Shown piece after piece: positions 5,686 through 29,580 of a DNA stretch of 38,824 nt; the first letter of the stretch is position 1; each line of letters opens with the position of its first letter. The position numbers and the translations under genes were made by a program. The DNA is from a virus: the IMG/VR virus record IMGVR_UViG_3300014838_000008, one strand, 5' to 3'. The notes under the pieces are model-generated. The model did not search any database, was not told the origin of the DNA, and saw nothing but the letters and a program-made list of their open reading frames with translations.

Positions 5686-5686
5686 T

Positions 5687-14271: not shown

Positions 14272-14279
14272 TTTTAAAC

Positions 14280-15060: not shown

Positions 15061-15244
15061 CCTGTAAGTGATGGAGGAGCGGATAGGGAGACGGAACCCC
15101 CTATCCTTCCACGCCCAAGTTCACATTTTTTAGCTCTTGGACTTGAGGGGCAGAGACTAGTTACCCCTCCATTAACAAAGTTTGGCGGCCAGAAAACTGA
15201 CCCTTACGCCCTAGCTACGCGGCCGGCGAACCGACCCACCCTGT
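15061..15244 (-). other. GC-rich (~57%) structured intergenic spacer with at least four hairpins
   Basis: I counted 102 G+C in the first 180 nt, against my by-eye estimate of roughly 40% for the genome. Minus-strand stems: gggtcgg-UUCG-ccggcc; gagggg/cccctc; tccaag/cttggg; ggataggg/ccctatcc. No ORF. Confidence 0.6.
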
Positions 15245-15952
15245 TTAATCGCTCGTAAACGATGCATCAAGCAGCGCCAGGTATTCCCATACATCGCTTG
15301 TGTTTACCATCAGAGTTGTTCCGAGCGTCAAACCTTGGAAAGACACGTTTTTCAACGGTGTATTGAAGATTTGGAAGCCCTGAGTTGTACTTGGTGGTAC
15401 ACCAGTGATTACGTTCGCAAACCCGCCGCTTGTATAAGAGGAGAAGCTTGTCGAATTAATATTCACTGTGAAACTGGTTGTGGAAGTTACGCTCTGGATC
15501 ACACCGCTTAAAGTGTTGATCTGAGTCATCCCAACAACGCCGTGGAAGGTCACGGTGGTCACGCCGATATCCGCTGCTGTGAAAGCATGGGTAGCGGTTA
15601 CTGATGCATTAGCAGCTTTGCTGATGCCAGTGATTGTCAGGTTAGTGCTGGTTGCTCCTGCTGGTAGCCCTGTGAGGGGAACGAATTCCCGACCTGGTGC
15701 TGGGACATAAGGAGTTACGCCATTACTTGAGATATAGCTCAGAGCTGGAACGCCAGTCGTATAAGTTGTGATATACGCTGATGCGTTGGCCATATCATTC
15801 CACCACTCGACGTTAGTTACGCCGGTGATAGTTCCAGATGTCTGGATCGTTTTATTAACCATTCTGAAATAACTTGGGATGAATCCTAAGTTAAGATTCT
15901 GAGCGGCTCCGCCTGTTACAACGGATAAAGTGCCTTTTTTTACAATTGCCAT
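15245..15952 (-). CDS. Capsid decoration / head fibre protein with a C-terminal E1-FCCH-like domain, 235 aa
   Basis: Immediately downstream of the MCP gene. SVTATHAFTAADIG...VVGMTQINTLSG...FTVNINSTSFSSYTSGGFANVITGVPPS. Confidence 0.55.
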   Translation of the reverse strand: MAIVKKGTLSVVTGGAAQNLNLGFIPSYFRMVNKTIQTSGTITGVTNVEWWNDMANASAYITTYTTGVPALSYISSNGVTPYVPAPGREFVPLTGLPAGATSTNLTITGISKAANASVTATHAFTAADIGVTTVTFHGVVGMTQINTLSGVIQSVTSTTSFTVNINSTSFSSYTSGGFANVITGVPPSTTQGFQIFNTPLKNVSFQGLTLGTTLMVNTSDVWEYLALLDASFTSD

Positions 15953-15961
15953 ATGTCCTCC

Positions 15962-16903
15962 TTATGAGTGTGTTGCGAGCAACTGAGTGATCCAGTTGTC
16001 ATTGAGGATTCTGGTTGCAAATGGGTACTTGTAACCTACTGTGCCTCTTTGGTTTAAGGGGTCAGCGGTTCCAGATGCGCCCAAAGGTTTCACGATAAAT
16101 TCGGCTTCTTTCGCGCCTAACCGAACAACCCCATAAGCCTCTTGGCCCAGGATGAAGCTAGAATAAACAGGAGGAGATGCAGAAGTGCTGTATCCATTTG
16201 TGTTTAAGAGCCAGCGCACGTTACGGGTAGAACCCCATTCCGCCTCAAGCCCATTTAAAGGATTAGGATAATTAGCAACTGATATAAAAGAAGAAACTGC
16301 TTCTAAATCATCTTGTAAATCAACTGACATAAATCCCCAATAAGAACTTCTTACTGGTGCAGTTCCAAACTTATTCTCGCCAGGTAAAGGATTCGTCATT
16401 AACCGTGCATTACCTTGACGCAATGCAATTACAGCTAATTGAATATCTTCATCTGTTAATTCTGTTGGAGTATTTCCATTTCCGCCGTGAGTACAATTAA
16501 TTACAGAACTAGTTGAAACCATCATATCTCTAATTAGAGTATCGATAGTCAAACCTAATTGTAATGAAAGAACTTTAGTTGCTTCATTTAATACGCGGTC
16601 TTGTACAACATACTGAACTTGGTCAGTAATTGTTACAAAGTCGCCATACCATTGGATCTGAGCCAAAAAGTCGGTAACTGAAAGTTGATCTCCAGGTGGT
16701 GTTTGGCCATCTGTTAGAGGAACTGTTGCAGCTGTGAGTGTGCCATATCGACGGAAAACCATCATATCCCCAGAGTTCAGAGGAATCTGACGCTTTTGGG
16801 CGAAGAGGTCGTAGATATAATATGGCCGAGCCAGAGCTAGAAGAAGACGGTCAAAATATTGACGGACTTCAGGTGGCAGCTGGGTTAAGGTAGTGATTGC
16901 CAT
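15962..16903 (-). CDS. Major capsid protein, HK97 fold, N4-gp56-like family, 313 aa
   Basis: Follows the scaffold gene. The N-terminal pattern ...RQYFDRLLLALARPYYIYDLFAQKRQIPLNSGDMMVFRRYGTL.A...PLTDGQTP is characteristic of that MCP family. Confidence 0.8.
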   Translation of the reverse strand: MAITTLTQLPPEVRQYFDRLLLALARPYYIYDLFAQKRQIPLNSGDMMVFRRYGTLTAATVPLTDGQTPPGDQLSVTDFLAQIQWYGDFVTITDQVQYVVQDRVLNEATKVLSLQLGLTIDTLIRDMMVSTSSVINCTHGGNGNTPTELTDEDIQLAVIALRQGNARLMTNPLPGENKFGTAPVRSSYWGFMSVDLQDDLEAVSSFISVANYPNPLNGLEAEWGSTRNVRWLLNTNGYSTSASPPVYSSFILGQEAYGVVRLGAKEAEFIVKPLGASGTADPLNQRGTVGYKYPFATRILNDNWITQLLATHS

Positions 16904-16918
16904 GTGAGGATCTCATTT

Positions 16919-17704
16919 TTAGATCTCCCCAAGGTTTTTAGTGGCTATTCTCATGAAATCGGCATCAGACATCGTTGCATAGTAGTCGGCCTGGCTAAGC
17001 ACGCTTTGACCTCCTGCCTGAGCAAGAGTGGCGGGTTTGCGGGCGTTTTCTACTATCTTCTGTGCGTTAGTGTTTAGTTGAGCGGGCTTCGGTGCAGGTG
17101 CTTCCATTCTTGATTGAGCCATCTTACCGAGATCATAGGCCGTTAAAGCCGGATTAGATGATCCACGGATTGCTTGGGCAAGATGTGGTTTTTGTTTAAG
17201 TAATGGGCCAGTAAACTTTTCCAATACTTCCGCATAATCGGGGTGAGCTGATGAAACCTGGAGTTCTTCAATGCGCGAATGATACTCTTGCTCACGTTGT
17301 TCAAAAGCGCGGCGAATTTCTGCCACATTTGGAACATCGTTGTCGCTTAATCCATCGAGAAATTTCTTAGGCTCGGGAGCCTCATATCTCTGTTGGGGCT
17401 GCGCATTCGCTTTAAATAGCTCTAGGTTTTGTCGGTACTCTTGTTTTTCAACATCCCTTTCTGCTTTTAGTCTTTCAATTTCTTCTCGAAGTGCTGCGAA
17501 GTTCTGCTCTTGTCTGGAGGGTTCTTTTGCCTGAACAGATTCAGCGCTCTCGAGAGGCGCTTCTGGAGGAGGCGATAAAAACTCTTTGTAGACGTGAGCA
17601 TCATCATTAGCTAATTCTTGCTGATAAGAATTTGGACTTACCTGTTGAACCGCGGCGGCCGGATCTAATATCTCGCCCGAATAATCTTTCATATCTATCG
17701 ACAT
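16919..17704 (-). CDS. Scaffolding protein, 261 aa
   Basis: Acidic, helical, coiled-coil rich (EEIERLKAERDVEKQEYRQNLE). Directly upstream of the MCP. Confidence 0.6.
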   Translation of the reverse strand: MSIDMKDYSGEILDPAAAVQQVSPNSYQQELANDDAHVYKEFLSPPPEAPLESAESVQAKEPSRQEQNFAALREEIERLKAERDVEKQEYRQNLELFKANAQPQQRYEAPEPKKFLDGLSDNDVPNVAEIRRAFEQREQEYHSRIEELQVSSAHPDYAEVLEKFTGPLLKQKPHLAQAIRGSSNPALTAYDLGKMAQSRMEAPAPKPAQLNTNAQKIVENARKPATLAQAGGQSVLSQADYYATMSDADFMRIATKNLGEI

Positions 17705-17768
17705 AGTTTCCTTAGCGTGGCGACCGCTATTTTACGCCCAATTTTTTGGAATCTAATTTTTCTCATTT

Positions 17769-18149
17769 TCAAGAGAGAAGAACATTCAACTCTTTTCCTT
17801 TTTCCATCACTGATGGGAGCGCGTCTTCCGCTTTTTCCCCCAAAAGACTTGGATCAACGGGTACGTCAGGCGGAGCGGATAGATGAGGTTGAAACTCAAA
17901 AATCCCCAACGGGTTATTGACGAACCAAACGAGAATCCCCAACATTGGTGTTGGTCTCTTAAAATACGCTTTCATGGTCTGCTTATAGACACCCTGCTTC
18001 ATCCTTGCGGACTGAACATTATCCATCTTGGCGGCATACACAATGTAGAAGGGCTTGACCTCATTTTTCATGTTGTTGGCGAAATCTTCCGCCATCTTCA
18101 TGACATCTCGTCCCCATTTCTCTCTTGCTTCACCTATAAGCGTCGGCAT
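17769..18149 (-). CDS. Hypothetical head-module protein, 126 aa
   Basis: ORF track entry. Lies between portal and scaffold. Confidence 0.4.
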   Translation of the reverse strand: MPTLIGEAREKWGRDVMKMAEDFANNMKNEVKPFYIVYAAKMDNVQSARMKQGVYKQTMKAYFKRPTPMLGILVWFVNNPLGIFEFQPHLSAPPDVPVDPSLLGEKAEDALPSVMEKGKELNVLLS

Positions 18150-18398
18150 CTAATATCCTGAGTTAGCATCCCAGCCATAACTTTTGAATTGGCTATGGAT
18201 TTTCTTTTCATCGGATGCGCAACCATGTTTGCCGGCTTGACCGTAGGCGGTGTCCATTGCTTCGCCTTTATAATCTTCGCAATTTTCCATAGGCTCATTT
18301 TTACGAGACTTTGGAACATGCGGTTTTTCTACTTCATTCTCATACATCGCATGGCCGGAATGACCCATATGACCATCCATGTGCTTATGTTTTTTCAT
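18150..18398 (-). CDS. His-rich small protein, 82 aa (MKKHKHMDGHMGHSGHAMY...)
   Basis: ORF track entry. 7 His in the first 17 residues plus two Cys. Confidence 0.4.
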   Translation of the reverse strand: MKKHKHMDGHMGHSGHAMYENEVEKPHVPKSRKNEPMENCEDYKGEAMDTAYGQAGKHGCASDEKKIHSQFKSYGWDANSGY

Positions 18399-18404
18399 AT
18401 GCCT

Positions 18405-18894: not shown

Positions 18895-21009
18895 TTACGC
18901 TGCTGTGGCTTCAGAAACCGCTTTAGGGACTGGTGCTTGAGGTTTCGCGTTCTCAGGAGTGTTCCTATCCTCTTCAGCTTTTTGACCGCCTTCTAGGGCC
19001 TTTAAAACTTGAATTTTCTGCATCAGATTAGATATATCTAACCCTTCAAGCTCTTTTACGGCTTTAATCAGGTTGAGGACTCCGCTGGTGCGGTCTTCTT
19101 CTGCTCTGGAGATACGCTCTGCGGAGAGGGCTGCGTCGAGCTGGACTTTATTGAGTCGTTCGGCTGCAAGGGCTTGATCGCTCTGAGCTTTAGCATTAAG
19201 AGAGTTAGTGACGGTCTCTTGCTGCTGAAGTTGCTGACGGAGCTGCATGTCTTGAACCTGCTGTGCCATCTTCGCTTTGGCTTCGAGGCGATCTTGTAGA
19301 TCTTTTTTATTGTGGAGGTTAGAATTCTTAATAATAAGCGCATCATCGACATCGACTCCCATCATTTTTAGAGCAGTCAGCTGTACGAATTGAGATTGGC
19401 GCTGAGTATCTGTGAGTACGCCTTCTTCCACAACCACATCATATTTAGAGAAGGTTTTGGAATAGAATTCAGGAGTTGGCTGCTTTTTGGTGATTAACTG
19501 GATCTTTTCTGGGGTATAATTGGCTTGGATCAATTTGAGGACTTTTCGACCTAAGAGCTTTTGAGAATCGCGGAGTCCATCGAAGATATCTTGTAGATTG
19601 ACGAGACCTGCTGCCTGACGCATTTTAGCGAGGATACCAGCTGTTTCGATTTTATCATTCTCTGCCATACCGAGATTTTCTGGGCTGATACCCACGTTCT
19701 CGATCATGTCCTTGTTGAACTCATTCTCTAACTGAAATAAAGAGGGATGGATGCCTGGAGCTTCGATTCTCTGGATGTCGGTCATTTGAGCTTCCGGCTT
19801 GAGGAAGATGACCTGACCATTACCTGACTTGAAGAGAGAAGCGTTATTGGTGACCGCGCCTGTTTTTGCGATCCATCCAGAGTTCAGCTGAGCGTCGATG
19901 ATATCGACCATTTTCGAGCGACGTTTATTGAGTTCTGTCTGCGGATCACGAATGAGGCGGACTAGAGATTGAATTTTCCAGGTATATAGATCATAGGAGG
20001 GTTCAAATGTGCAGAGGAATGGAACCATGGGGTATTCATTAAGGCCGCCTGGGTCTTTTCCGTAATAGAGGAGTTCTCCTTCTACGATAATCCCCAGCTC
20101 CACGCTTTTAACTGGTTTGCGAACGATCTCAATTTGAGGGAATGCCTCACGGAACATACGGAGGCGTTTGCGGTCTCCATTCCATTCTTTTGTTTCCCCT
20201 GATTCCATATCAACCAGAACATCTTTTGTCTCCCAGCGAGTGCGCCAATATTCTGTATAATTCAATAACTTCTGCATACCCCATTGGCGGGCATAAGGCA
20301 TATAAGTGAATTTATCATCTCTCGATCCCCAAGGTAGCACATTGATTTTATCCTCTTTATCGGGAAGGAGAGAGATTACTTCGGTGCGGGAGAGAAATTT
20401 TCTGCGAGCAACGAAGCTACAATCTGAAAGATCCTTCTTTGTGAAGAATGGATCTAGGATTACCGCATTCCATTCATCCAGGTGGAATTTAACGTCTCCA
20501 GAGATAGGGTCGGAGCGGTAATCCATGTACGGAGAGACGAAGGAGATGCCAGTTGTAAGAGCGCCTTTAAAAGCGTCAGAGATGATCGTATAGCCATCCG
20601 CTGATTCCATGACGTGCTGAATGGTATCAGTGAAAATATCTGCTGTGAGATCAGCAGCATCTTCCACGGGAGAGATGATTGTCGCAAGTCGGTTTTTGCG
20701 CTGATATCCCTGAATGAGATTGATGATTCGGCGGATTTTATTGTATGTGAAGGAAGATCGACGCTGATTATTAAGATACGCCAGTTCTTCCAAAGACCAC
20801 TGATTCCCGAGGTAGTAGGAAAGGTCTTTGTATGCTTCAGCGTAATAGGTATTCCAGAGCTGATAGGCTCTCTCATAAGATTCACCGAAGTCCTGAATGA
20901 TGTCTTGGTGGAATTCCAGGCGATCATCATTAGCGATCTTTTTCTTGTAATCCCCTAGAAAATCGCGGGTATCCTGCGATTGGGAATAATCGCTCATGGG
21001 GCTGGCCAT
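18895..21009 (-). CDS. Portal protein, 704 aa, with a long C-terminal helical (barrel-like) extension
   Basis: Size, position in the head module, and a Q/A/L-rich ~120-aa coiled C-terminus reminiscent of the P22 portal barrel. Confidence 0.7.
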   Translation of the reverse strand: MASPMSDYSQSQDTRDFLGDYKKKIANDDRLEFHQDIIQDFGESYERAYQLWNTYYAEAYKDLSYYLGNQWSLEELAYLNNQRRSSFTYNKIRRIINLIQGYQRKNRLATIISPVEDAADLTADIFTDTIQHVMESADGYTIISDAFKGALTTGISFVSPYMDYRSDPISGDVKFHLDEWNAVILDPFFTKKDLSDCSFVARRKFLSRTEVISLLPDKEDKINVLPWGSRDDKFTYMPYARQWGMQKLLNYTEYWRTRWETKDVLVDMESGETKEWNGDRKRLRMFREAFPQIEIVRKPVKSVELGIIVEGELLYYGKDPGGLNEYPMVPFLCTFEPSYDLYTWKIQSLVRLIRDPQTELNKRRSKMVDIIDAQLNSGWIAKTGAVTNNASLFKSGNGQVIFLKPEAQMTDIQRIEAPGIHPSLFQLENEFNKDMIENVGISPENLGMAENDKIETAGILAKMRQAAGLVNLQDIFDGLRDSQKLLGRKVLKLIQANYTPEKIQLITKKQPTPEFYSKTFSKYDVVVEEGVLTDTQRQSQFVQLTALKMMGVDVDDALIIKNSNLHNKKDLQDRLEAKAKMAQQVQDMQLRQQLQQQETVTNSLNAKAQSDQALAAERLNKVQLDAALSAERISRAEEDRTSGVLNLIKAVKELEGLDISNLMQKIQVLKALEGGQKAEEDRNTPENAKPQAPVPKAVSEATAA

Positions 21010-21019
21010 CAGAACCTCG

Positions 21020-21059
21020 GGTAAATAATAATTTGATTATATTCAAAAAATTATTTACC
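21020..21059. promoter_or_regulatory. 10-bp perfect inverted repeat (ggtaaataat / attatttacc, 20-nt loop containing TATAAT on the minus strand) just upstream of portal
   Basis: Read directly. Lies in the 57-bp gap between 21067 and the portal start at 21009. Confidence 0.4.
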
Positions 21060-21066
21060 TTCTAGT

Positions 21067-21294
21067 CTAATTGCCCGTTAATACGCTCGCTAGTTGATCT
21101 AATTCAATTAGAGCTTCATCTTTATTAGAAAATTCAATTGCAAGAGAGGTTCCATTTAAATAAGTGACCAATATTAGATACTTCTCTGCTTCTTCATCGA
21201 AATTGGTTGAAACCACATGAATATTCTCAATCAAGAAAATATGATCTTTGATTCTATAAAATTCAGTCTTTCCAAGTTTTTTCTTTATTCCCAT
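21067..21294 (-). CDS. Hypothetical protein, 75 aa
   Basis: ORF track entry. Confidence 0.4.
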   Translation of the reverse strand: MGIKKKLGKTEFYRIKDHIFLIENIHVVSTNFDEEAEKYLILVTYLNGTSLAIEFSNKDEALIELDQLASVLTGN

Positions 21295-21479
21295 ATAAAA
21301 TTAGCCTTGATGATGATGTTTTCGGGCTTTCCCTTGAAGTTGGCGACCGCTTGATCGATTAAGCGTTTTAAATCGGCGCTTTCATGGGAAATTTCTATGG
21401 GACTATATACTAGAAAATCCTGTTTAAAGGAAACATCTTCGCTTTTGATCTTTACTGAGATGGTTGTAGGCATTAGCAC
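21285..21479 (-). CDS. Hypothetical protein, 64 aa (probable start ATG 21473, TAATG-coupled)
   Basis: ORF track entry (GTG start). The internal ATG shares its A with the upstream stop. Confidence 0.4.
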   Translation of the reverse strand: MLMPTTISVKIKSEDVSFKQDFLVYSPIEISHESADLKRLIDQAVANFKGKPENIIIKANFIWE

Positions 21480-21667
21480 ATCGCCTTTTTAGCTTTTTTG
21501 AATTTATCGATCATTGGATCTCTCTTATCGCGATCTTCTACTTTTAGCTTTTCATTCTTCTTTTCTGCTTTCTTCAGCACTTTTACAGCAGCCTTCGGTT
21601 TGCCCTTCTTGACATCCTTCTCCGCTACTTTCATATTTTCCGTGATCTTGTGAATTTTCTTGTCCAT
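21473..21667 (-). CDS. Lys-rich small protein, 64 aa
   Basis: ORF track entry. Its stop is coupled (TAATG) to the next gene. Overlaps the tail of 21552..21839 in another frame. Confidence 0.4.
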   Translation of the reverse strand: MDKKIHKITENMKVAEKDVKKGKPKAAVKVLKKAEKKNEKLKVEDRDKRDPMIDKFKKAKKAMC

Positions 21668-21839
21668 CTTCTATCCTTATAAATTCTTCAGCTTGTTGAA
21701 TTTCAAATAACTTAAAAAAGCAGTCTGTGCAATAGAAATACTCTATGCGTTCCTGCTTTTCATCATGGGAGATCATCAGATTTCCCTCTATGAAAATCCC
21801 ATTGCATCTACCGCAAACATATTGGGCTTCATCTTCCAT
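21552..21839 (-). CDS. Zn-ribbon protein (CGRC...CTDC), 95 aa as an open frame; the C-terminal ~35 aa may be read-on through the next gene
   Basis: ORF track entry. Two CxxC pairs in the first 50 aa. Purine-rich tail overlaps 21473..21667. Confidence 0.4.
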   Translation of the reverse strand: MEDEAQYVCGRCNGIFIEGNLMISHDEKQERIEYFYCTDCFFKLFEIQQAEEFIRIEDGQENSQDHGKYESSGEGCQEGQTEGCCKSAEESRKEE

Positions 21840-21840
21840 C

Positions 21841-22005
21841 TTAAAACTTCTTCTGAATTAAGGGAGTGATCGGAGTGACCTGAATATCGACCCCTTCATT
21901 CTTTTTCAGAACGGTCTCGGTGAGTTTTTCCATCTCATCGGATGGTTGGCTCTTGTTAAAAAGGGTGCAACTGCATAAAGTTGTTAAAAGTATTAAATAT
22001 TTCAT
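21841..22005 (-). CDS. 54-aa putative lipoprotein (MKYLILLTTLCSCTLFNKSQ...)
   Basis: ATGA overlap with the RNA ligase stop. Signal-peptide-like N-terminus with a lipobox-like L-C-S-C. Below the track cutoff. Confidence 0.45.
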   Translation of the reverse strand: MKYLILLTTLCSCTLFNKSQPSDEMEKLTETVLKKNEGVDIQVTPITPLIQKKF

Positions 22006-22670
22006 TGAAACTCCTTACATTTTAATTTAAACATAATTGGTCTACCATTACGGAAAAGCATGAGAGGTGCGGAACGTGCAACAACCCCTTCCATCATTTG
22101 TGGAATTTCAGAGCAGCGACTTAGTGGCTTTGACTTCACGAAATCCACAATTTCATCTTCTGTCATTATCCCGATATGAGGTACAGCAGGAACAGATATT
22201 TCTGATGCTATGGCCCGCATATCTTGACTTTGTAGTACCCAATTGCCGACCACTACGTCAAACATGATAAATCCTGGGTGTTTGCGGTAATTTCCTCCGC
22301 CAGCCTGGATTTTTGGGCCATACCCCTCTCCAAAGAGAGTTACCTTCTGAGCATCTTTAAAAACGCTCTCGATCTTTTCCAGCGTAAATACTGTTTGTAG
22401 ATAAGTGAGAAGATGCGGGGCGATCTGCGCATTATCTGTTCTTCCAGCGATTCTAAAAGACTTGTCCCTTTCATATTCTATCCTTATATTGGTTCCATCG
22501 ATCTTTTCTGAGACATCCCATTTCTTGATATTCCCAAACTCTTCATCTGCATAATCACCGATAATTAAAGATTTAAGAACATTTGGATAAAATGATGATT
22601 TTTTCTTATCTTGATCGAAATACCAGCCTTGTCTCTTCCATAGGCTATTTATCTTGTAATACTCGCTCAT
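22002..22670 (-). CDS. ATP-dependent RNA ligase (minimal Rnl / DRB0094-like nucleotidyltransferase), 222 aa
   Basis: Ligase motifs I SEKIDGTN, III LFGEGYG, IIIa FIMFDVV, IV EGVVAR and V MFKLKCK occur in the canonical order and spacing. Confidence 0.7.
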   Translation of the reverse strand: MSEYYKINSLWKRQGWYFDQDKKKSSFYPNVLKSLIIGDYADEEFGNIKKWDVSEKIDGTNIRIEYERDKSFRIAGRTDNAQIAPHLLTYLQTVFTLEKIESVFKDAQKVTLFGEGYGPKIQAGGGNYRKHPGFIMFDVVVGNWVLQSQDMRAIASEISVPAVPHIGIMTEDEIVDFVKSKPLSRCSEIPQMMEGVVARSAPLMLFRNGRPIMFKLKCKEFQ

Positions 22671-22908
22671 CGCCTATTCCTTTCTTTTTCCATTGAGAAA
22701 ATCCGTAAAAGTTAAGCCATATTGAAATGAGGCAAAATGCGCCTTGTGCATAGAGGCCGATGTAAAAATCTCTGACCATCCAATAGATCGCTCCGAATGC
22801 CCAGATTAGAAAACATACTCTTCGCCCCTTCGCATTCAACCATCTTGCCCATTTACCAGAAAGGGAAACGACTGTATCAAGTGCTTCCCCGATCCAATTA
22901 ATTTCCAT
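22645..22908 (-). CDS. 3-TM membrane protein resembling one half of a PnuC nicotinamide-riboside transporter, 87 aa
   Basis: FLIWAFGAIYWMVRDFYIGLYAQGAFCLISIWLNFYGFSQWKKK matches the PnuC pattern (...GLYa.a.l.......iyGw..W) as I remember it. Confidence 0.4.
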   Translation of the reverse strand: MEINWIGEALDTVVSLSGKWARWLNAKGRRVCFLIWAFGAIYWMVRDFYIGLYAQGAFCLISIWLNFYGFSQWKKKGIGDERVLQDK

Positions 22909-23105
22909 TATTCAGTTAATTTTAAAGTATAATCACTAATTTGATCTAATGATGATAATTTAAATATTATATAATTACAATTTCCCTCATCATCTTTACT
23001 ATTTAAATATTGTGGCAATTCTTCAGGTTTTGAAGTATATTGTGCAGCATTATATTCTCTTCCTGAATCAGCTCTTAAAATTAGATATATTTCTTTTTTA
23101 GACAT
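22908..23105 (-). CDS. Hypothetical protein, 65 aa
   Basis: ORF track entry. Confidence 0.4.
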   Translation of the reverse strand: MSKKEIYLILRADSGREYNAAQYTSKPEELPQYLNSKDDEGNCNYIIFKLSSLDQISDYTLKLTE

Positions 23106-23122
23106 AAAGCTCCATTTATGTT

Positions 23123-23317
23123 TTAAATAATGACTGTTAATTTTAAAGGATGTTCAATACAGTCAATAAATGAACTCCCGTCATCTTTTGTGGTCTTGCA
23201 AATGTTTTGCCCATTGCCACATCTAGTACAATGATGTCTTACCCAGGATTTATTCTTTTTATCAGGCAAAAAAGTTATTAAATGCTCTACTACTTCTATA
23301 TATTTTATATTTGGCAT
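23123..23317 (-). CDS. Cys/His-rich (Zn-binding-like) small protein, 64 aa
   Basis: ORF track entry. HHCTRCGNGQNIC...C..H. Confidence 0.4.
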   Translation of the reverse strand: MPNIKYIEVVEHLITFLPDKKNKSWVRHHCTRCGNGQNICKTTKDDGSSFIDCIEHPLKLTVII

Positions 23318-23320
23318 CTA

Positions 23321-23410
23321 TTACTTCAGTTTTAAATTAGGGACAATTCCAGGAGGTAAAGGTATCCTGGGTAACGGGATGAAAGGACTCTGAACGCTAT
23401 TCTGAGTCAT
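23321..23410 (-). CDS. Proline-rich mini-ORF, 29 aa (MTQNSVQSPFIPLPRIPLPPGIVPNLKLK)
   Basis: ATG at 23410. Stop TAA at 23323..23321, 3 nt before the next ATG. Contains PPG. Confidence 0.3.
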   Translation of the reverse strand: MTQNSVQSPFIPLPRIPLPPGIVPNLKLK

Positions 23411-23438
23411 CGGGCTTATCGGCGACCTCTGAGGTGGC

Positions 23439-23678
23439 CTAGGAATCATTGGAATGCAGATTGGCATGATGTGCCTTATAAATATGAATCATTTTTTCTA
23501 AACAATCTTTAATTATATCAGTAGGATTTAATTTTAATTTTTCTCCGTGATACCCATTCCATAAATACATTAAATCTATATCTTCCAGCAATCCTTGTTT
23601 CCAAGCAATGCAAGCACCTTTGCCAAATGCCCATTCACTAAATTCAGGGTCTACAGAGGTATCTACTATTGCTCTCAT
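23439..23678 (-). CDS. Hypothetical protein, 79 aa from ATG 23678 (the track version starts at TTG 23726)
   Basis: The first ATG sits in an ATGA overlap with the stop of the Pro-rich mini-ORF 23675..23785. The TTG start has no SD. Confidence 0.45.
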   Translation of the reverse strand: MRAIVDTSVDPEFSEWAFGKGACIAWKQGLLEDIDLMYLWNGYHGEKLKLNPTDIIKDCLEKMIHIYKAHHANLHSNDS

Positions 23679-23785
23679 GATCTCACTGGAGGGGTTGGCA
23701 AAGATCCTAATGGCTTTGGCGCCCAAGGCCCTTGCGGGAATGAATTTGGCGGCTTCGGTGGTTTTGGTGTAATTACTCGTCCCAT
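23675..23785 (-). CDS. Proline-rich mini-ORF, 36 aa (MGRVITPKPPKPPNSFPQGPWAPKPLGSLPTPPVRS)
   Basis: The ATG lies 1 nt after the GroES-like stop. Ends in an ATGA overlap with the downstream gene. 12 Pro in 36 aa. Confidence 0.35.
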   Translation of the reverse strand: MGRVITPKPPKPPNSFPQGPWAPKPLGSLPTPPVRS

Positions 23786-23786
23786 G

Positions 23787-24053
23787 TTAATTATCCTTTA
23801 ATATCGCTAAAACCTGATTATCCGCTATTGAAAAGTAAATTTCATCATCAATATTAATTAAAACCCCTGATTCTCCAGGTAATATAATTATATCGCCTTC
23901 TTGCACATTTTTATCGACTTCTGATCCTACAGCGATAACTACCGCATGCAACTCTTTTTTTTCTCTTTCAATCAGGAGTATTCCCTTTTGAGGCTTTTCT
24001 TCTTGGGGGATTATCTGAACTACGATTCTTTTTCCGGCGGCTGCTATTTTCAT
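23787..24053 (-). CDS. groES: GroES-like co-chaperonin (Cpn10 / gp31-like), 88 aa
   Basis: GKRIVVQIIPQEEKPQKGILLI...HAVVIAVGSEVDKNVQEGDIIILPGESGVLINIDDEIYFSIADNQVLAIL follows the Cpn10 pattern along its whole length. Confidence 0.7.
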   Translation of the reverse strand: MKIAAAGKRIVVQIIPQEEKPQKGILLIEREKKELHAVVIAVGSEVDKNVQEGDIIILPGESGVLINIDDEIYFSIADNQVLAILKDN

Positions 24054-24291
24054 AATTCCTCTCTATTTTTTTTAGGCAATCTGGGCATTGATAATGAGTT
24101 GTCATATCTAAATCCCAGTCATATATCCCTATGATTCTGGAAAATTGCTTAGGCGATTCTTTCGTCCATCCATAATGCGAGGCCGTTTCTAGGGCTTTTG
24201 CTTCATCGCCATATTTCTTAAGAAAGTGCTGGAATATATCGCCTGAATCTAACACGGTCTTGCAATGCGGGCAATGTGAGGGATGGGACAT
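23968..24291 (-). CDS. Zn-ribbon protein (CPHC...CPDC), 107 aa; its basic tail overlaps the groES-like start by 86 nt
   Basis: ORF track entry. Two CPxC pairs. Confidence 0.45.
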   Translation of the reverse strand: MSHPSHCPHCKTVLDSGDIFQHFLKKYGDEAKALETASHYGWTKESPKQFSRIIGIYDWDLDMTTHYQCPDCLKKIERNYENSSRRKKNRSSDNPPRRKASKGNTPD

Positions 24292-24306
24292 TTTATCCTT
24301 TAAATT

Positions 24307-24381
24307 TCTGGGTGGAAGGATTTGAACCTCCGACCTGCCGGCTCCAAACCGGACGCGCTAGCCAAGCTGCGCTACACCCAG
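24307..24381 (-). tRNA. tRNA-Pro (anticodon UGG)
   Basis: Hand-folded cloverleaf: acceptor CTGGGTG/CACCCAG; D arm GCGC-AGCTTGGCTA-GCGC; anticodon arm (T)CCGG-TTTGGAG-CCGG(C); variable loop AGGTC; T arm GGAGG-TTCAAAT-CCTTC; discriminator A. No encoded CCA. Confidence 0.85.
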
Positions 24382-24382
24382 A

Positions 24383-24455
24383 TAAGAGCGGATGGATTTG
24401 CACCATCGATCACTTCCTTATAAGAGAAGGGCTTTGACTGCTTAGCTACGCTCTT
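24383..24455 (-). tRNA. tRNA-Ile (anticodon UAU), atypical D and T loops
   Basis: Hand-folded: acceptor AAGAGCG/CGCTCTT perfect; 3-bp D stem GCT/AGC with loop AAGCAGTCAA (no GG); anticodon arm CTTCT-CTTATAA-GGAAG; T arm GATGG-TGCAAAT-CCATC (G at position 55). Ends 1 nt before tRNA-Pro. Confidence 0.65.
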
Positions 24456-24569
24456 CCATATCTTTTTAAGCCGAGCCATTTGCGATAGTTTCTCACTCGG
24501 CAATCACAAACAAAGTTTCCTTCTCTATGAAGATTCTCTTTTTTTAACTTCTTGTCGTCGAATTTCTTT

Positions 24570-24767
24570 TTAGAGAGTTGTTTTATCTTTTTTATCGGAG
24601 ATATCAATTTTAAAAATTATCTTTGCTGCGCTTGACATTGCTTCATTTATTGATGTAATATTTCTGTCTTCTTCTTTTATACACATTAATTTTAACATTA
24701 ATATCATAGAAAAGCCCTTAATATTATCTTCTAATTCTTTTTGAGTAAATGTATAACTAGTTTCCAT
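24570..24767 (-). CDS. Hypothetical protein, 65 aa
   Basis: ORF track entry. Lies between rtcB and the tRNAs. Confidence 0.4.
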   Translation of the reverse strand: METSYTFTQKELEDNIKGFSMILMLKLMCIKEEDRNITSINEAMSSAAKIIFKIDISDKKDKTTL

Positions 24768-24778
24768 AATTTCCTTTC

Positions 24779-25987
24779 TTAATCTTTATAAGGGTCATGA
24801 TCTCGGCTATCTGCCATACAAACGCCTATGGGCTTGAGATATTCTTCGATTTCAATTGTTTCTGCATGTGCTGCCAGAATCTCTTCAATGCGCTTGTAGG
24901 CTTGAGGGGCTTCGTCAACGTCGGCTCCTCGGAGTTCGACTCCTTCTCTTTTAATCCAAGCTTGCATCTCATCTCTGCTGATAAGTCCAGCTTTGATAAT
25001 ATTGCCTCGCTTATCTCGCTTTCCACGGGCTTGAGTTCTTCCCATTGCACGGCCTGCTCCATGTATGGTTGAAAATAAGGATTGGGCCAATATAGAAGGT
25101 TGCTGCCCTCCTTCTTCAGATATTTTCTCTTTTCTTCCACGTAGGATAACTGATATATCTCCCATAGATCCTCCAACAAAGCCTCTTTGACCAGGAAAGG
25201 CAGGAGTGGCCCCTTTTCGCAGGACCCAGAGGTCTCGACCAAAATGTGTTTCTCGCCAAGCGAAATTATGGTGATTGTGAACTTCTTCGACGATATTTCC
25301 TCTAAGGATTTGCGCAACGCGTTGGCATACCCAGTCTCTCCCTGCATAAGCATAGCGCCCAGCAACCTCCATGCACCGCAAATAAAGCTGTCCGAGTTCT
25401 GAATGGTCATCAAATAATACTGGTTCTGCGTGGACTCCATCTTTTCCGCCTCCTGCCTTTACGAAGTGAGTAGCAATGCTGTGGCCAAGTCCACGGCTGC
25501 CAAAATGCACACCAACCCAAATGCGGTCAGCGCGATCAACAAAAATGTCCACATAATGATTTCCGCTGCCGACCGTACCCAGCTGGGCAACCGCTTTGTC
25601 TTTGAGTCCTTTGAGAAGATCGATTTCGTCCCATATAGGTTCATCGAAGATCGGATGATCCACACGCTCATTATTTTTCCTGCCAACTCCGAAGGATATT
25701 TTTGATTGAATTTCATTCATGATCCTATAAATATCTTTTTTTATTCCTTCTGCGGGGCAATCCAATCTTACGGCCTTATTACCGCAAGCAATGTCATAAC
25801 CCACGCCATTAACGCAAATCTTGCCTTCGTAGGCTATCACGCCCCCTACGGGCACGCTGTAGCCAATATGTGCATCAGCGCATAATACTGCATGAACTAC
25901 GGGAGATTTTTCACAAACCGCATTCATCTGTGCTAAGGTTTCTGGATCTGCATTACCAAAAATCTTAATATCTACGTCATGATTCAC
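24779..25987 (-). CDS. rtcB: RNA 3'-phosphate/2',3'-cyclic phosphate ligase RtcB, 402 aa
   Basis: Full-length match to RtcB hallmarks: CADAHIGYSVPVGG, GYDIACG, GSGNHYVDIF, VHFGSRGLGH, NHHNFAW, HGAGRAMGR. Confidence 0.9.
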   Translation of the reverse strand: MNHDVDIKIFGNADPETLAQMNAVCEKSPVVHAVLCADAHIGYSVPVGGVIAYEGKICVNGVGYDIACGNKAVRLDCPAEGIKKDIYRIMNEIQSKISFGVGRKNNERVDHPIFDEPIWDEIDLLKGLKDKAVAQLGTVGSGNHYVDIFVDRADRIWVGVHFGSRGLGHSIATHFVKAGGGKDGVHAEPVLFDDHSELGQLYLRCMEVAGRYAYAGRDWVCQRVAQILRGNIVEEVHNHHNFAWRETHFGRDLWVLRKGATPAFPGQRGFVGGSMGDISVILRGRKEKISEEGGQQPSILAQSLFSTIHGAGRAMGRTQARGKRDKRGNIIKAGLISRDEMQAWIKREGVELRGADVDEAPQAYKRIEEILAAHAETIEIEEYLKPIGVCMADSRDHDPYKD

Positions 25988-26442
25988 TTTTTACCCCATT
26001 GATCTTTGAAATATCGCTTAATGCGAGCCATTTTATCCTCGGTCGTCTCTTCTAGTGACCTAAATTTTATTCCATCGCCTGTAGAATATAAGATACACAC
26101 TTTAGAATTTATCGATTCATTTTCTTCTGGAAGAGGATTTTCTTTTCTTTCAGGGCAGAAATAGCGATCATCTCTATTATGGCGAACCCAATTCAGCAAT
26201 CCCTCTTTTTTATAGGTGGGATCATCTATAAAATACTCCCTCTCATCAGCAACTCGCCAATGGGTAACTATTTGCAAAGCGCACGCCATTTGATTGGCAG
26301 TCATTGAAGGCTCATCGAAAAACCAGCTGCCTAGAGAATTTATTTGGGCATATCCCACGCCGTTAGCCGTCAACACCTCTACAAAAATCTCCTGAAGCGG
26401 ATAACCTTCATCAATTGGAATCCATTCGCCTTTTTCACTCAT
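25984..26442 (-). CDS. DUF551-like phage protein, 152 aa from ATG 26442 (the track version starts at TTG 26547)
   Basis: EWIPIDEGYPLQEIFVEVLTANG resembles the DUF551 W-I-x-x-x-D-x-x-P...V-L-V motif. The ATG sits in an ATGA overlap with the upstream Pro-rich mini-ORF. Its stop overlaps the rtcB start. Confidence 0.5.
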   Translation of the reverse strand: MSEKGEWIPIDEGYPLQEIFVEVLTANGVGYAQINSLGSWFFDEPSMTANQMACALQIVTHWRVADEREYFIDDPTYKKEGLLNWVRHNRDDRYFCPERKENPLPEENESINSKVCILYSTGDGIKFRSLEETTEDKMARIKRYFKDQWGKK

Positions 26443-26600
26443 GGATTCCCTCCGCCCCCTGGAGGAATCTTCATCACTTGAGGAGTGGAGTTGACTTTTG
26501 GCTGATTCGGAGCCGGCTGAGGGAGGGTTTGTTGAGGGTTTGGCCAATATTTTGGACGAACCGGAGGGGGAATAGGCGTAGTTACGGTAGATTTAGGCAT
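26439..26600 (-). CDS. Proline-rich mini-ORF, 53 aa (MPKSTVTTPIPPPVRPKYWPNPQQTLPQPAPNQPKVNSTPQVMKIPPGGGGNP)
   Basis: The ATG shares a base with the upstream TAA (TAATG). Stops in an ATGA overlap with the DUF551-like gene. 16 Pro in 53 aa. Contains PPP and PPG. Confidence 0.35.
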   Translation of the reverse strand: MPKSTVTTPIPPPVRPKYWPNPQQTLPQPAPNQPKVNSTPQVMKIPPGGGGNP

Positions 26601-26854
26601 TATTTCACCAAGTTTTCATAGATCATATAGGGTAAGTTAGAATGCTTGCAGATCCAATATGGCAGATAAAATCCAGCAAAGATCCAATGTAAAATCGCCC
26701 ACAAGACGCTCTTATTGACGCTCCATGAGCAGGCGACCGCTGCAATGGAGATTAGATCGCACATTACCGAGCGGATCTTTATGGTTTTCTTCTCTTCACT
26801 CACTTTTTTCTTGTCCTTTAGTAAGGTAATCATATAAATCCCTGCTATCCTCAA
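26600..26854 (-). CDS. Small 2-TM membrane protein (start ambiguous: TTG 26854, ATG 26833 or ATG 26764)
   Basis: ORF track entry. Hydrophobic segments LISIAAVACSWSV and VLWAILHWIFAGFYLPYWI. Confidence 0.4.
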   Translation of the reverse strand: MRIAGIYMITLLKDKKKVSEEKKTIKIRSVMCDLISIAAVACSWSVNKSVLWAILHWIFAGFYLPYWICKHSNLPYMIYENLVK

Positions 26855-27068
26855 ACACTTCTTTTTTTAATAGGGCATATATCTCAATCAGATCCGCCAT
26901 TGCATAGGCTCTACGCATCGGGGGTGTATTGGCTATTGCCGAGGGGAAGCAGGTGAGCATCATTGCCCTTGCATTATTGACATAACCAGCATTCATCAAC
27001 CCTACATAGGCATCAACAAATAACGCCGACGCTTCCCTTCCAACTTTATCGGCCTTTTCCTGATCCAT
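26796..27068 (-). CDS. Hypothetical protein, 90 aa
   Basis: ORF track entry. Confidence 0.4.
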   Translation of the reverse strand: MDQEKADKVGREASALFVDAYVGLMNAGYVNNARAMMLTCFPSAIANTPPMRRAYAMADLIEIYALLKKEVFEDSRDLYDYLTKGQEKSE

Positions 27069-27591
27069 CCTTCACCCAAACTTCATTGCCATTCACACGG
27101 GTAGCAAGATATCGGAACCCTTTTTTCTTGATATCACGACGGATATCTTCTTTTTCAGATTCTGAAGTATTAGTGAATTCTTTTTCTCCTTCATAACCTT
27201 CATAATAACCGTTAGTAATCTCATACATATCAGGGCAATTAAGAGCTTTTCTAACCATTGATATATTTTCGTTAATAGCACTCTTAACCTTTTCAATGTC
27301 TTTAATTACTTCTGATTCAGTATTACATACTCTACTAGCTAAATTAGAAACCCTTTCATCTAATGCTTTATAATTGTTAGTTATTCTATGTTCAATAGAT
27401 TGCATCTTTTCTTGTAAATCACTAACTTTTAACTTAGTCATATACCAATCATGGTATAACTCACCGAATCTCTTTTCTAATTGATCTATTCTTTGTGATT
27501 TAGACATTTTTTTTGATTTCCCTCTGATTGTATTTAAGTGATAGATTGATCCATCAACCAGTTTTATGCCTGGCGGAAGTGTTACCATCAT
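27046..27591 (-). CDS. Coiled-coil protein, 181 aa (paralogue of 27588..28154)
   Basis: Shares the C-terminal module ...ITNGYYEGYEG...KKKGFRYLATRVNGNEVWVKD with its neighbour (...ITGYYGSGPQ...KDKGFKHLHTKADGVEVWVKD). Confidence 0.45.
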   Translation of the reverse strand: MMVTLPPGIKLVDGSIYHLNTIRGKSKKMSKSQRIDQLEKRFGELYHDWYMTKLKVSDLQEKMQSIEHRITNNYKALDERVSNLASRVCNTESEVIKDIEKVKSAINENISMVRKALNCPDMYEITNGYYEGYEGEKEFTNTSESEKEDIRRDIKKKGFRYLATRVNGNEVWVKDGSGKGR

Positions 27592-28154
27592 GCTACTGCG
27601 GGTTTAGGATCTTCTTTTACGGGCAGAGTAGGATCTTTTACCCATACTTCCACTCCATCAGCCTTGGTATGAAGGTGTTTGAAACCTTTATCTTTAGCCT
27701 CGGCACGCGCTTTATCCATTCGAGCTTGCTCATGCGGATCGTGCGTATCTTGAGGGCCTGAACCATAATAACCAGTGATTTCCATGGTTTGAGGCGCATT
27801 GACTGCCTTCTTATGGATGAATAGTTCTTCTCTAGCTTCTGCTATTTCTTTACGTCGTCTATCCATTGAATATTTTAGATTATCTTCTAATTCTCTAATT
27901 CTCTTAATAATAGATCTTTTAGACTTGAACCAATGTTTTACAATATCGCAAATACTCATCTTTCTCCTGCTAATTAAGTTAATTCTTGCATCGGGTGGCC
28001 CTATATATGCGTACTTACCGCTAAACCTTATCCCGATAGTTGGAATGCAAATTTCTGTACTACTTTCATCTTGATACTTATTTTTCGATTGACTTGCAAG
28101 TATTTTTTCTGGCATAAAGTTTGGATCTACAATTGCGCTCATGTTATTTCTCAA
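27588..28154 (-). CDS. Coiled-coil protein, 188 aa (paralogue of 27046..27591)
   Basis: See the paralogue. ATGA-type overlaps with both neighbours. Confidence 0.45.
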   Translation of the reverse strand: MRNNMSAIVDPNFMPEKILASQSKNKYQDESSTEICIPTIGIRFSGKYAYIGPPDARINLISRRKMSICDIVKHWFKSKRSIIKRIRELEDNLKYSMDRRRKEIAEAREELFIHKKAVNAPQTMEITGYYGSGPQDTHDPHEQARMDKARAEAKDKGFKHLHTKADGVEVWVKDPTLPVKEDPKPAVA

Positions 28155-29580
28155 AGATAGGTTGGTATTTATCGCGCATTCGCTCTACCTCAAAGTCGGT
28201 AGGGCCTTTACTGCTTTCAGCGTAGCGTTTGATCCCTAGGGCCATATATCGGGCTGCATCTGCCCCGTGGCTCGCCCAATCGTGAACGGGGCGCGTCTTA
28301 TATACGTTGTGGATTTCATCGAACTCTTTGCGGTAGTTTTCTAGGCAGAGGATGAGTCGCTTGCAGTTCTTTTCATCGATCCAGATTCTAGGGAATATCC
28401 CTCGAAGGCTCTCGATACCGCTTTCCACTGATAATTTGAGAGTGGGCAGAGTAATGAACTTGATCCCAAACTCCATCGCCACTTCTTTAACGGAATTACC
28501 CCATGAGATATGGTGGTTTTCGATATCCTGTGGCCCATAATGATCCGCATAGAGGTACTTCTTTTTAGAAATGACTTGAGCGTAATGCGGAAAACCCTCT
28601 CCATGATTTTCATAGTAGTCAATAATGTGTATCTCTTGGCCAATGATCTGGAAGAATATAATACTTGTGGAGTCGCCGAATCCAATATCCCATGCTGTAT
28701 ATACACGACTTGTTTCTTGCCAAATGACGTTTCCAATTCGGTTTTCGTCTCTTGCTCGCTGAATATTCTTGGCATAATAGCTTCCCTCAATACCCATCGT
28801 GAATGAGCAATAGAACTCCTGTTGGATATAATCCTCGCTCATCCCCTGCTCGCGCTCTGATTGAACGTCGGCTTCCGAGATAACGGGTGAGCCATCCTCA
28901 CGCTTGGTATCTTTAACCGTGAGCAATTGGGTGAACCATGAGTCATTGCCCTTGGCCATGTCATATAGCTCTTTAGCGTGGTTAGCACCGCGAGGGGTGA
29001 AGTTGAACACCGCCCATCCGCCATTTTCTACTAAGATAGGGCGCATGAGCGTCCATGCTGCAGGCTCTTGAAGGGAGAATTCAGAGTAAACGCAACCCAT
29101 CGGGTTAGTACCAACGATCGAGTCGATATTATCCGTGCCTATGATCTGAATGATTGAGCTATTGCGTAGAACGATCTTCATTTCTTGTTGGTTTTTAGAG
29201 CGGATGATCTGTTCGGGGATATGATCAAGGACTTTGAACCCCTCTTTGTCTATGAAATCCCATAGCACCTTGCGCCCTTGAGCAAATGAGGGGAAGAAAT
29301 AGAAATAGACACCGACCTTGAGTAGAGCTTGCTTAATGACGAAGTTCCAGCACACCTTCTCTTTACCTGCTCGCCTATGCCAAACAAGGATCGCTCTGCG
29401 GATAGCATCGGGATGAGAGGATTGAGGGAGATGAGCGTATTGCATTGCTCGGAAGAAGTCTTTCTGATAAGCCCTTGTTTTGAAGTTGAAAGGTATCTCA
29501 ATATCAATCGTCTTGACTTTAGAGGATTCGCCGTTAGGAGTTTTGGTGAAGTGAGGAAGTTTAGAATACTTTTCTTTCAT
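28144..29580 (-). CDS. terL: Terminase large subunit, 478 aa
   Basis: Walker-A-like VWHRRAGKEKV. C-terminal RNaseH-like nuclease signature YTAWDIGFGDSTSIIFFQ. Size, and position next to terS. Confidence 0.8.
   Translation of the reverse strand: MKEKYSKLPHFTKTPNGESSKVKTIDIEIPFNFKTRAYQKDFFRAMQYAHLPQSSHPDAIRRAILVWHRRAGKEKVCWNFVIKQALLKVGVYFYFFPSFAQGRKVLWDFIDKEGFKVLDHIPEQIIRSKNQQEMKIVLRNSSIIQIIGTDNIDSIVGTNPMGCVYSEFSLQEPAAWTLMRPILVENGGWAVFNFTPRGANHAKELYDMAKGNDSWFTQLLTVKDTKREDGSPVISEADVQSEREQGMSEDYIQQEFYCSFTMGIEGSYYAKNIQRARDENRIGNVIWQETSRVYTAWDIGFGDSTSIIFFQIIGQEIHIIDYYENHGEGFPHYAQVISKKKYLYADHYGPQDIENHHISWGNSVKEVAMEFGIKFITLPTLKLSVESGIESLRGIFPRIWIDEKNCKRLILCLENYRKEFDEIHNVYKTRPVHDWASHGADAARYMALGIKRYAESSKGPTDFEVERMRDKYQPIFEK

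Follow-up and report, generated by a model that had tools for sequence, protein, structure and literature searches.

Immune systems that cleave tRNA are rapidly being found, among them PrrC, RloC, retron/PtuAB, PARIS, OLD, Septu, Schlafen, and Cas12a3. In phage T4, tRNA cut by PrrC is restored for late translation by two phage enzymes: the ends are healed by Pnkp and sealed by the RNA ligase Rnl1. Other phages combine RtcB, Rnl1, Rnl2, and tRNAs, a combination read as non-redundant repair of the products of different RNases (Iyer, Anantharaman, Krishnan, Burroughs & Aravind 2021, PMC7824862). The phages of that survey are jumbo phages of >200 kb, and their ligases are usually accompanied by polynucleotide kinase, phosphoesterase healing enzymes, and RlaP. 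Here we describe a locus in the IMG/VR virus record IMGVR_UViG_3300014838_000008, whose 38,824 nucleotides (nt) were analyzed in full and are called the window. In it, genes for an RtcB RNA ligase and for an ATP-dependent RNA-ligase-like enzyme of 222 amino acids (aa) flank a tRNA-Ile/tRNA-Pro pair.

The locus shares with the surveyed jumbo phages RtcB, an ATP-dependent RNA ligase, and phage-encoded tRNAs, and it invites the same inference. The idea of a two-ligase-plus-tRNA answer to RNA damage is already in print with Iyer et al. (PMC7824862), so the initial annotation of this DNA, which advanced that idea and described the arrangement as not a textbook module, overstated its novelty. The differences lie in the size of the genome (38.7 kb), in the lack of any recognizable healing enzyme, and in an ATP-dependent ligase that is neither Rnl1 nor Rnl2 proper. 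What is new is therefore the setting in a 38.7-kb phage of an uncultured lineage, the absence of recognizable healing enzymes from its genome, and an ATP-dependent ligase from a large, uncharacterized, domain-minimal clade. The window differs from T4 as well. It has neither Pnkp nor Rnl1, the 5'-kinase/3'-phosphatase that T4-type heal-and-seal repair encodes with its ligase is missing, and RtcB would directly seal breaks of the kind that T4 repairs in two steps. The four features lie where the initial annotation had placed them, and all are on the minus strand, which it had left unstated.

RtcB (24779..25987, minus strand) is a 402-aa protein with a GTG start that overlaps the upstream open reading frame (ORF) by 4 nt. 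It matches Pfam PF01139 with an E-value of 7.7e-62 (210.3 bits, cut-off 27) along positions 12-424 of the 426-position profile, PHROG 1075 ('tRNA splicing ligase') with an E-value of 2.9e-72, and structures of P. horikoshii RtcB with E-values of about 1e-24. Its translation contains the motifs CADAHIGYSVPVGG, GSGNHY, HFGSRGLGH, and HGAGRAMGR, and its designation as a full-length RtcB stands. Residues D65, C68, N143, H144, H161, H240, and H309 correspond in the alignment to P. horikoshii D95, C98, N202, H203, H234, H329, and H404. These we take to comprise the metal ligands (Asp, Cys, His) and the GMP-accepting His. All seven are invariant in 63 distinct phage homologs whose identity to the window protein is no more than 53-75 %, which argues that activity is under selection. 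Judged by this alignment the catalytic residues of the window RtcB are complete, and the activity of the family, GTP/Mn2+-dependent joining of 3'-phosphate or 2',3'-cyclic-phosphate ends to 5'-OH ends, is predicted for it. RtcB is common in cultured phages, where 675 GenBank records match, including the mycobacteriophage 'RtcB-like RNA ligase'. The nearest, all aligned at full length, are those of Tunturiibacter phage Tunturi_5 (56 %), Sinorhizobium phage AP-16-3 (54 %), and Microcystis phage Mwe-JY26 (49 %). The window RtcB is of their enzyme family, but the phage that carries it has no cultured relative. The gene neighborhoods of these closest cultured-phage copies were uninformative.

The second enzyme (22002..22670, minus strand) consists of a nucleotidyltransferase domain only. 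It matches Pfam RNA_ligase (PF09414) with an E-value of 2.9e-15 (57.3 bits, cut-off 27; positions 2-170 of the 171-position profile) and PHROG 548 ('RNA ligase') with an E-value of 1.4e-17, so that the profile searches proposed as a check in the initial annotation gave significant matches for both ligases. The motifs KIDGTN, LFGEGYG, FIMFDVV, EGVVAR, and FKLKCK, on which the protein had been named a nucleotidyltransferase with ligase motifs, are all in its translation. In an alignment of 22 homologs the invariant residues are K56 (motif I, EKxDGTN), R77 (Ia), E115/G116 (III), F137/D138 (IIIa), E194/G195 (IV), and K215/K217 (V), together with an N-terminal element, Y4-K6-I7-S9-L10-W11-K12-R13. 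The motif I lysine and the presumed His/Cys metal ligands of RtcB are thus both kept on alignment. A HMMER alignment pairs the motif residues with those of T4 Rnl2. By these comparisons none of the covalent-nucleotidyltransferase motifs of an ATP-dependent RNA ligase is missing from the protein, which carries no accessory domain and is expected to join 3'-OH to 5'-phosphate ends. With both enzyme identities upheld, the assignment of opposite end chemistries to the two ligases is retained as a prediction.

An AlphaFold2 model of the 222-aa protein (pLDDT 82.7, pTM 0.80) has as its top Foldseek match the nucleotidyltransferase domain of T4 Rnl2 (E 6.8e-9, TM 0.63), followed by Naegleria Rnl5, trypanosome REL1, archaeal Rnl3, and T4 Rnl1; DNA ligases rank lower. 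Structure prediction, a further check suggested at the outset, therefore bears out the nucleotidyltransferase fold but leaves residues 12-37 and 123-126 modeled at low confidence. With T4 Rnl2 (PDB 1s68, 2hvq) the protein shares the K, R, E, F/D, E, and K.K motif residues and an N-terminal Y-x-x-I/S-S-L element. It differs from T4 Rnl2 in overall sequence (~17-19 % identity, phmmer E 0.19), in lacking the C-terminal domain of residues 244-329, and in having a family-specific insert of ~20 aa before motif I.

The 222-aa protein does not fall within any of the named families to which it was compared. It has ~47 residues ahead of motif I and stops 5 residues past motif V, and therefore lacks the accessory domains that define Rnl2, Rnl3, and Rnl5. 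Against the Rnl2 model (T4 Rnl2, kinetoplastid REL1; TIGR02307) it scores 20.5 bits with a cut-off of 197, and the helical C-terminal domain is missing. Against the Rnl5 model (DraRnl, NgrRnl; TIGR02306) it scores 16.5 bits with a cut-off of 151, and it has no Pfam OB-fold match, unlike the Rnl5 family with its N-terminal OB-like domain. Against the Rnl3 model (Pab1020, MthRnl; TIGR01209 / COG1423) it scores 21.2 bits with a cut-off of 137, and the profile match to Pab1020 spans Pab1020 residues 97-221 only. Rnl3 proteins are ~380 aa long and have N-terminal, dimerization, and C-terminal domains around the nucleotidyltransferase core. Since neither the Rnl3 model nor these domains are matched, the JGI name 'ATP-dependent RNA circularization protein' was rejected as an over-transfer. 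A profile of the ligase family matches Pab1020 with an E-value of 1.7e-5 and T4 Rnl2 with one of 1.6e-4, which suggests that the family is about equally distant from Rnl3 and Rnl2 at the sequence level. The protein is best described, on these scores, as a member of a separate PF09414 clade that has the nucleotidyltransferase domain only. In T4 Rnl2 the C-terminal domain, residues 244-329, determines substrate specificity, and a 203-aa Rnl2-like protein from Diplonema has been modeled (PMC4599027), so very short Rnl2-like proteins are not unprecedented.

The clade is large. An exhaustive search with the family profile recovered, as representatives of clusters at 50 % identity, 3,240, 2,145, and 1,109 sequences at E-value limits of 1e-3, 1e-10, and 1e-30, respectively. 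Nearly all of the best matches are 205-250 aa long, and the short form is not a truncation artifact. Members in cultured phages are 34-37 % identical to the window protein over the full length, are ~215 aa long, and are annotated 'RNA ligase'. They come from ~40 Streptomyces phage records (BillNye, Circinus, Comrade, and others), crAss-like phages (cr116_1, IAS virus), Prevotella phages, and spring-water podoviruses (Manatee Spring). The Streptomyces, crAss-like, and Manatee Spring ligases are of the same family and size as that of the window, but their genomic contexts differ. No RtcB lies within 7-8 kb of the ligase in BillNye or in the GenBank podovirus ctKR88, and the gene neighborhoods of the cultured-phage ligases were uninformative. 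A literature search found no biochemical study of the family. N-terminally extended members (P0132, P0179, and others) were considered as fusions that might reveal a Rosetta-stone partner, and were discarded because they have no extra Pfam domain.

The tRNA pair lies between the two ligase genes. ARAGORN and Rfam RF00005 (gathering score 29) both identify tRNA-Ile(UAU), which reads AUA (24383..24455, minus strand; 62.0 bits), and tRNA-Pro(UGG) (24306..24382, minus strand; 58.2 bits), in agreement with the initial annotation. The two abut with a spacer of 0-1 nt, their 7-nt anticodon loops are CUUAUAA and UUUGGAG, respectively, and neither encodes the 3' CCA. Both are canonical, intact, and intron-free, and of canonical length. 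No intron or ribozyme was found anywhere in the window at Rfam gathering thresholds. In the phage, ATA accounts for 15 of every 1000 codons (22 % of Ile codons), with 20-23 per 1000 in early and island genes and 1-3 per 1000 in capsid and portal genes. The figure for CCA is 14.8 per 1000, and 36 % of the Pro codons in structural genes are CCA. Phage tRNAs have been proposed in general to replace depleted host tRNAs (van den Berg et al. 2023, PMC10264068). Those of the window may replace depleted host species or may simply supply AUA and CCA decoding.

Around these genes the window has the form of a complete phage genome. An exact direct repeat of 123 bp is present at its ends (1-123 = 38702-38824), which makes the window a complete genome (38,701 unique bases), either circularly permuted or with direct terminal repeats. 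RtcB, the ligase, and both tRNAs are within a hypervariable accessory gap of ~7 kb (21010..28143, minus strand) between the large terminase subunit gene TerL (28144..29580, minus strand) and the portal gene (18895..21009, minus strand). The gap holds about 18-20 small ORFs besides. The initial annotation had placed the island in one operon. Its genes do share one orientation, but so does the whole of the late region between 29580 and 2019 (minus strand), and their common direction therefore carries little weight. Scans for consensus promoters and terminators gave no excess over shuffled sequence and were thus uninformative as to a separate transcription unit for the island, and that proposal was dropped. 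No match to GenBank phages was obtained by megablast of 20000-38824. The portal is ~24 % identical to P22-like portals and at most ~25 % identical to that of any cultured phage, and the phage has no cultured relative. The loci of its IMG/VR relatives are mostly on ~40 kb contigs, which points to a populous uncultured phage lineage.

To place the island among these relatives, loci were fetched from IMG/VR by ligase (80 of 144 relatives), by RtcB (80 of 224 relatives), and by portal (19), and the 4,303 ORFs of the fetched loci were clustered. An RtcB gene is within 10 kb of a 222-aa ligase gene in 5/80 ligase-selected loci and 6/80 RtcB-selected loci, and after loci on one contig were merged the two occur together on six contigs, including the window. 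The 19 portal-sampled close relatives differ in the gene content of the TerL-portal gap in every case. RtcB is present in 2 of them, the ligase in 6, a metallophosphoesterase in 7, and tRNAs in 5, and all of the tRNA sets differ. The order of the window (TerL, RtcB, tRNA-Pro, GroES, ligase, portal) recurs in a single relative (sampled as L202, L046, and L161), which lacks tRNA-Ile. The commonest tRNAs near RtcB or the ligase in relatives are Asn-GUU, Asp-GUC, Thr-UGU, and Ile-UAU, in sets that vary widely. The distances of tRNAs to RtcB, the ligase, or TerL are only slightly shorter than under a null of uniform placement, and a specific linkage of tRNAs to ligases was therefore dropped as independent evidence. 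Taken over ~180 related loci, these distributions indicate that RtcB, the 222-aa ligase, and the tRNAs have largely been gained and lost independently. Many such combinations exist, of which that in the window is one; it is no conserved cassette, and the comparison does not support the coherent two-ligase-plus-tRNA module that had been proposed.

The pairing of RtcB with some ATP-dependent ligase is another matter. An OB-fold, Rnl5-like ligase (324 aa; Pfam RNA_ligase E 2.5e-20, PHA02142 OB fold E 8.5e-9) is present in 16/80 RtcB-selected loci, usually directly downstream of RtcB, and the tally is 16/81 RtcB-bearing records after the addition of two ligase-fetched loci and the window. All but one of these 16 loci also hold a 221-aa calcineurin-like phosphoesterase (Metallophos E 3.4e-12). 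The order RtcB, Rnl5-like ligase, phosphoesterase, tRNA array is found in at least 13 loci, and a cassette of RtcB, Rnl5-like ligase, metallophosphoesterase, an array of 2-4 tRNAs, and TerL is present in L113, L117, L123, L124, L131 (5702..10700), and L133, among others. In 16 loci the phosphoesterase is found with the 222-aa ligase as well, and in two of them (L017, L038) it lies between RtcB and the ligase. The Rnl5-like and 222-aa ligases occur together in 0/161 locus records, as expected if they are alternative fillers of one role. With an Rnl5-like ligase in 16/80 RtcB loci, the pairing of two ligation chemistries appears to be a recurrent design in the lineage. Of the two-ligase pairing in the initial annotation, this general form is upheld, and the particular partnership with the 222-aa ligase and the Ile/Pro tRNA pair is not. 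The parts are individually mobile accessory genes that are repeatedly assembled in varied combinations by the lineage.

Enzymes that might prepare ends for ligation are present in some relatives and were sought in the window. Pfam scans of its genome-wide ORFs found no kinase, phosphatase, 2H, or HD enzyme, and the initial claim that no end-healing kinase/phosphatase is recognizable holds across the genome at Pfam sensitivity. The phosphoesterase, the AAA_28 kinase, and the Rnl5-like ligase of the relatives are absent from the window (by tblastn for the first two). The AAA_28 protein, a P-loop kinase (201 aa; 9406..10011 in L020), overlaps the start of the 222-aa ligase in L020-L023 and L041. 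Its candidacy as a polynucleotide 5'-kinase is ambiguous, as nicotinamide-riboside kinases of the NadR type fall within AAA_28 too, and the same islands hold genes for NAD salvage and for PnuC-like proteins. In ctKR88 (MW202524), PRPP synthetase and nicotinate phosphoribosyltransferase genes are ~6 kb from the ligase copy.

Other genes are interspersed in the island. A GroES/Cpn10-like co-chaperonin (23787..24053, minus strand; Pfam Cpn10 E 4.9e-11, PHROG 3188) overlaps a Zn-ribbon ORF (23968..24291, minus strand) by 86 nt, and the order tRNA-Pro(UGG) then GroES is kept in L046/L161/L202 and L170. The GroES-like protein is probably unrelated to RNA repair and is possibly a capsid-folding helper by analogy with T4 gp31. 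The start of the ligase gene is overlapped by 26 nt by an ORF for an 87-aa PnuC-like membrane protein with ~3 transmembrane segments (22645..22908, minus strand), which scores 26.8 bits against Pfam NMN_transporter (cut-off 27.3) and matches the N-terminal 40 % of PnuC only. Homologs of the same size are beside the ligase or RtcB in ~10 relatives (L005, L006, L018, L113, L122, L132, L148, L151, L153, and L169). Its membership of the RNA-repair set is uncertain, and the idea that it forms a dimerizing half-size transporter is speculative. A 54-aa lipoprotein-like ORF downstream of the ligase was considered as a trans-acting partner and rejected, as it has no homolog in relatives. A phage-encoded nuclease or toxin was likewise sought in the island, and Pfam and PADLOC were both negative.

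Two tandem ORFs just downstream of TerL (27046..27591 and 27588..28154, minus strand) are paralogs. Their C-terminal 70 residues are 39 % identical (E 5e-12), with KGF(K/R)xLxTxxxGxEVWVKD at the very end of each; neither is assigned to a family, and the related loci hold no homologs. In the structural region (2019..18400, minus strand), the only Pfam matches among 40 otherwise unannotated ORFs are K1-lyase_C in one ORF (E 1.4e-10) and E1_FCCH in two (E 1.5e-7). These domains are typical of tailspike/tail-fiber proteins and suggest a capsule-degrading tailspike. Unusual tRNAs are present near RtcB or the ligase in several relatives (L165, L019 at 3363, L065 at 11010, and L025 at 11685). Several have 4-base anticodons (cgat, gtaa, cgtt), and that of L165, at ~7761, is a putative suppressor tRNA with anticodon UUA that would read UAA (ARAGORN).

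A scan for the ligase in 185,579 species genomes gave matches in metagenome-assembled genomes (MAGs) only. One contig in a Chlamydiia MAG bin (L090; PMZB01000021.1, 5.5 kb) holds TerL, the 222-aa ligase, tRNA-Trp, and the portal of a like phage type, and further copies of the ligase (L086-L088) are in a Dependentiae MAG. These contigs are weak hints of a host and could be binning artifacts. Chlamydiia were rejected as the named host, one binned contig of 5.5 kb being too weak for the purpose.

We lean, if only modestly, towards reading the island as a set of accessory RNA-repair and translation-support genes that keep translation going when the host cuts RNA. Host nucleases would cut tRNA or other translation RNA during infection, and the phage would have two routes of resealing. 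RtcB would directly reseal cyclic-phosphate/3'-phosphate and 5'-OH breaks made by metal-independent RNases (PrrC, RloC, colicin-type, HEPN), and the small ATP-dependent ligase would directly reseal 3'-OH/5'-phosphate nicks made by metal-dependent nucleases (Toprim, PIN, HNH). The tRNA pair would add AUA and CCN decoding, as replacements for depleted host tRNAs or as codon supply. Neither sealing route needs a kinase or phosphatase, which would explain a genome that has neither; their lack is then not a paradox. The Toprim nuclease P2-OLD leaves 5'-phosphate and 3'-OH ends on tRNA, and T4 Rnl1 or Rnl2 suffices for a single P2-OLD nick to be 'seamlessly repaired', with no healing of the ends (PMC12445682). 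We infer a counter-defense function for the island. A bolder version, which we put forward tentatively and consider rather doubtful, is that the 222-aa protein represents a widespread, mostly phage-borne family of the smallest self-sufficient RNA ligases and forms, with RtcB, a healing-free two-chemistry kit for small phages. A bare nucleotidyltransferase domain with a short conserved N-terminal insert would then suffice. The mini-ligase would seal the 3'-OH/5'-phosphate nicks made by metal-dependent defense nucleases (Toprim enzymes such as OLD/PARIS, PIN, HNH), and RtcB would handle cuts by metal-independent RNases.

Several observations weigh against a joint counter-damage function. RtcB and the 222-aa ligase are together in only ~6-8 % of related loci, and tRNA identities are not conserved among those loci. 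The fraction of tRNAs within 500 nt of RtcB (10/34) compares with 22 % expected under the uniform null, and such clustering may reflect a shared insertion hotspot, not joint function. The phage itself uses AUA and CCA substantially, so codon supply is sufficient to explain the tRNAs. The island genes lie in the late, structural transcription direction, unlike the repair genes of T4, which are expressed early to middle in infection. The ligase has no counterpart of the substrate-handling C-domain of T4 Rnl2, which Ho et al. reportedly found in 2004 to be needed for AMP transfer to the 5'-phosphate, and its full ligase activity is therefore not assured. RtcB, the ligase, the GroES-like and PnuC-like proteins, and the tRNAs may be unrelated passengers in an insertion-tolerant gap, with tRNAs that serve AUA/CCA supply and with no layered counter-defense, an explanation that we take seriously but consider unlikely. 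The gap that differs in each close relative sampled by portal, the differing tRNA sets, the rarity of RtcB with the 222-aa ligase, the near-null tRNA proximity, the substantial ATA and CCA use, and the unrelated genes in between (GroES, the Zn-ribbon ORF, and the lipoprotein-like ORF) all fit it. The synteny of RtcB, Rnl5-like ligase, phosphoesterase, and tRNAs and the mutual exclusivity of the two ATP-ligase types would be difficult to account for if the RNA-repair genes were not functionally linked, however, and the catalytic residues of both enzymes are strictly conserved.

The lack of any accessory domain also bears on whether the 222-aa protein is a stand-alone repair ligase. If it is not, RtcB alone would be a bona fide repair enzyme, and the smaller protein may carry out self-adenylylation or sealing of pre-adenylylated ends only, work with a host or phage partner, seal nicks in RNA-DNA hybrids, or adenylylate RNA 5' ends. 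A protein that ends 5 residues after motif V, that has no Rnl2 C-domain, Rnl5 OB domain, or Rnl3 flanking domains and scores far below the NCBIfam cut-offs, and whose family-specific insert at 12-37 is conserved but modeled at low confidence would be consistent with such a role. In relatives its gene often has that of a calcineurin-like phosphoesterase or of an AAA_28 P-loop kinase as a neighbor, a hint of partner dependence. We nevertheless consider this quite improbable, since the catalytic motifs are invariant across a very large, size-consistent family, which argues that the short form is functional by itself. There is no conserved adjacent partner (in several loci the portal gene directly follows the ligase), RNA ligases rank above DNA ligases in the structure search, and the protein never occurs with the Rnl5-like ligase, which suggests an equivalent role. 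It is also conceivable that the role of the ligases is internal to the phage, in RNA processing or self-protection, and not a response to host attack; they might ligate phage transcripts or tRNA precursors, repair rRNA, or guard against a phage-encoded nuclease whose targets are the host or rival phages. The tRNAs, fused head to tail without CCA, do need processing, and relatives of RtcB act on rRNA and mRNA in cells, as in RtcB2-PrfH and the XBP1/HAC1-type pathways. Given that both tRNAs are intact, intron-free, and of canonical length, that Pfam and PADLOC detect no nuclease or toxin in the island, and that Rfam finds no intron or ribozyme in the window at gathering thresholds, we regard this last explanation as highly improbable.

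Phage answers to tRNA-cleaving immunity are mapped less well than the immune systems themselves. In the lineage described here, which comprises environmental phages of ~40 kb, RNA-repair genes have been brought together again and again next to the packaging genes. They include RtcB, an ATP-dependent ligase of either of two kinds, in many cases a metallophosphoesterase, and tRNAs that vary. This repeated assembly in phages of such a size implies that RNA repair is not a specialty of T4-like and jumbo phages. If the domain-minimal RNA ligases are active alone, they would have practical use as enzymes and would reveal how small a protein can be and still seal an RNA nick.

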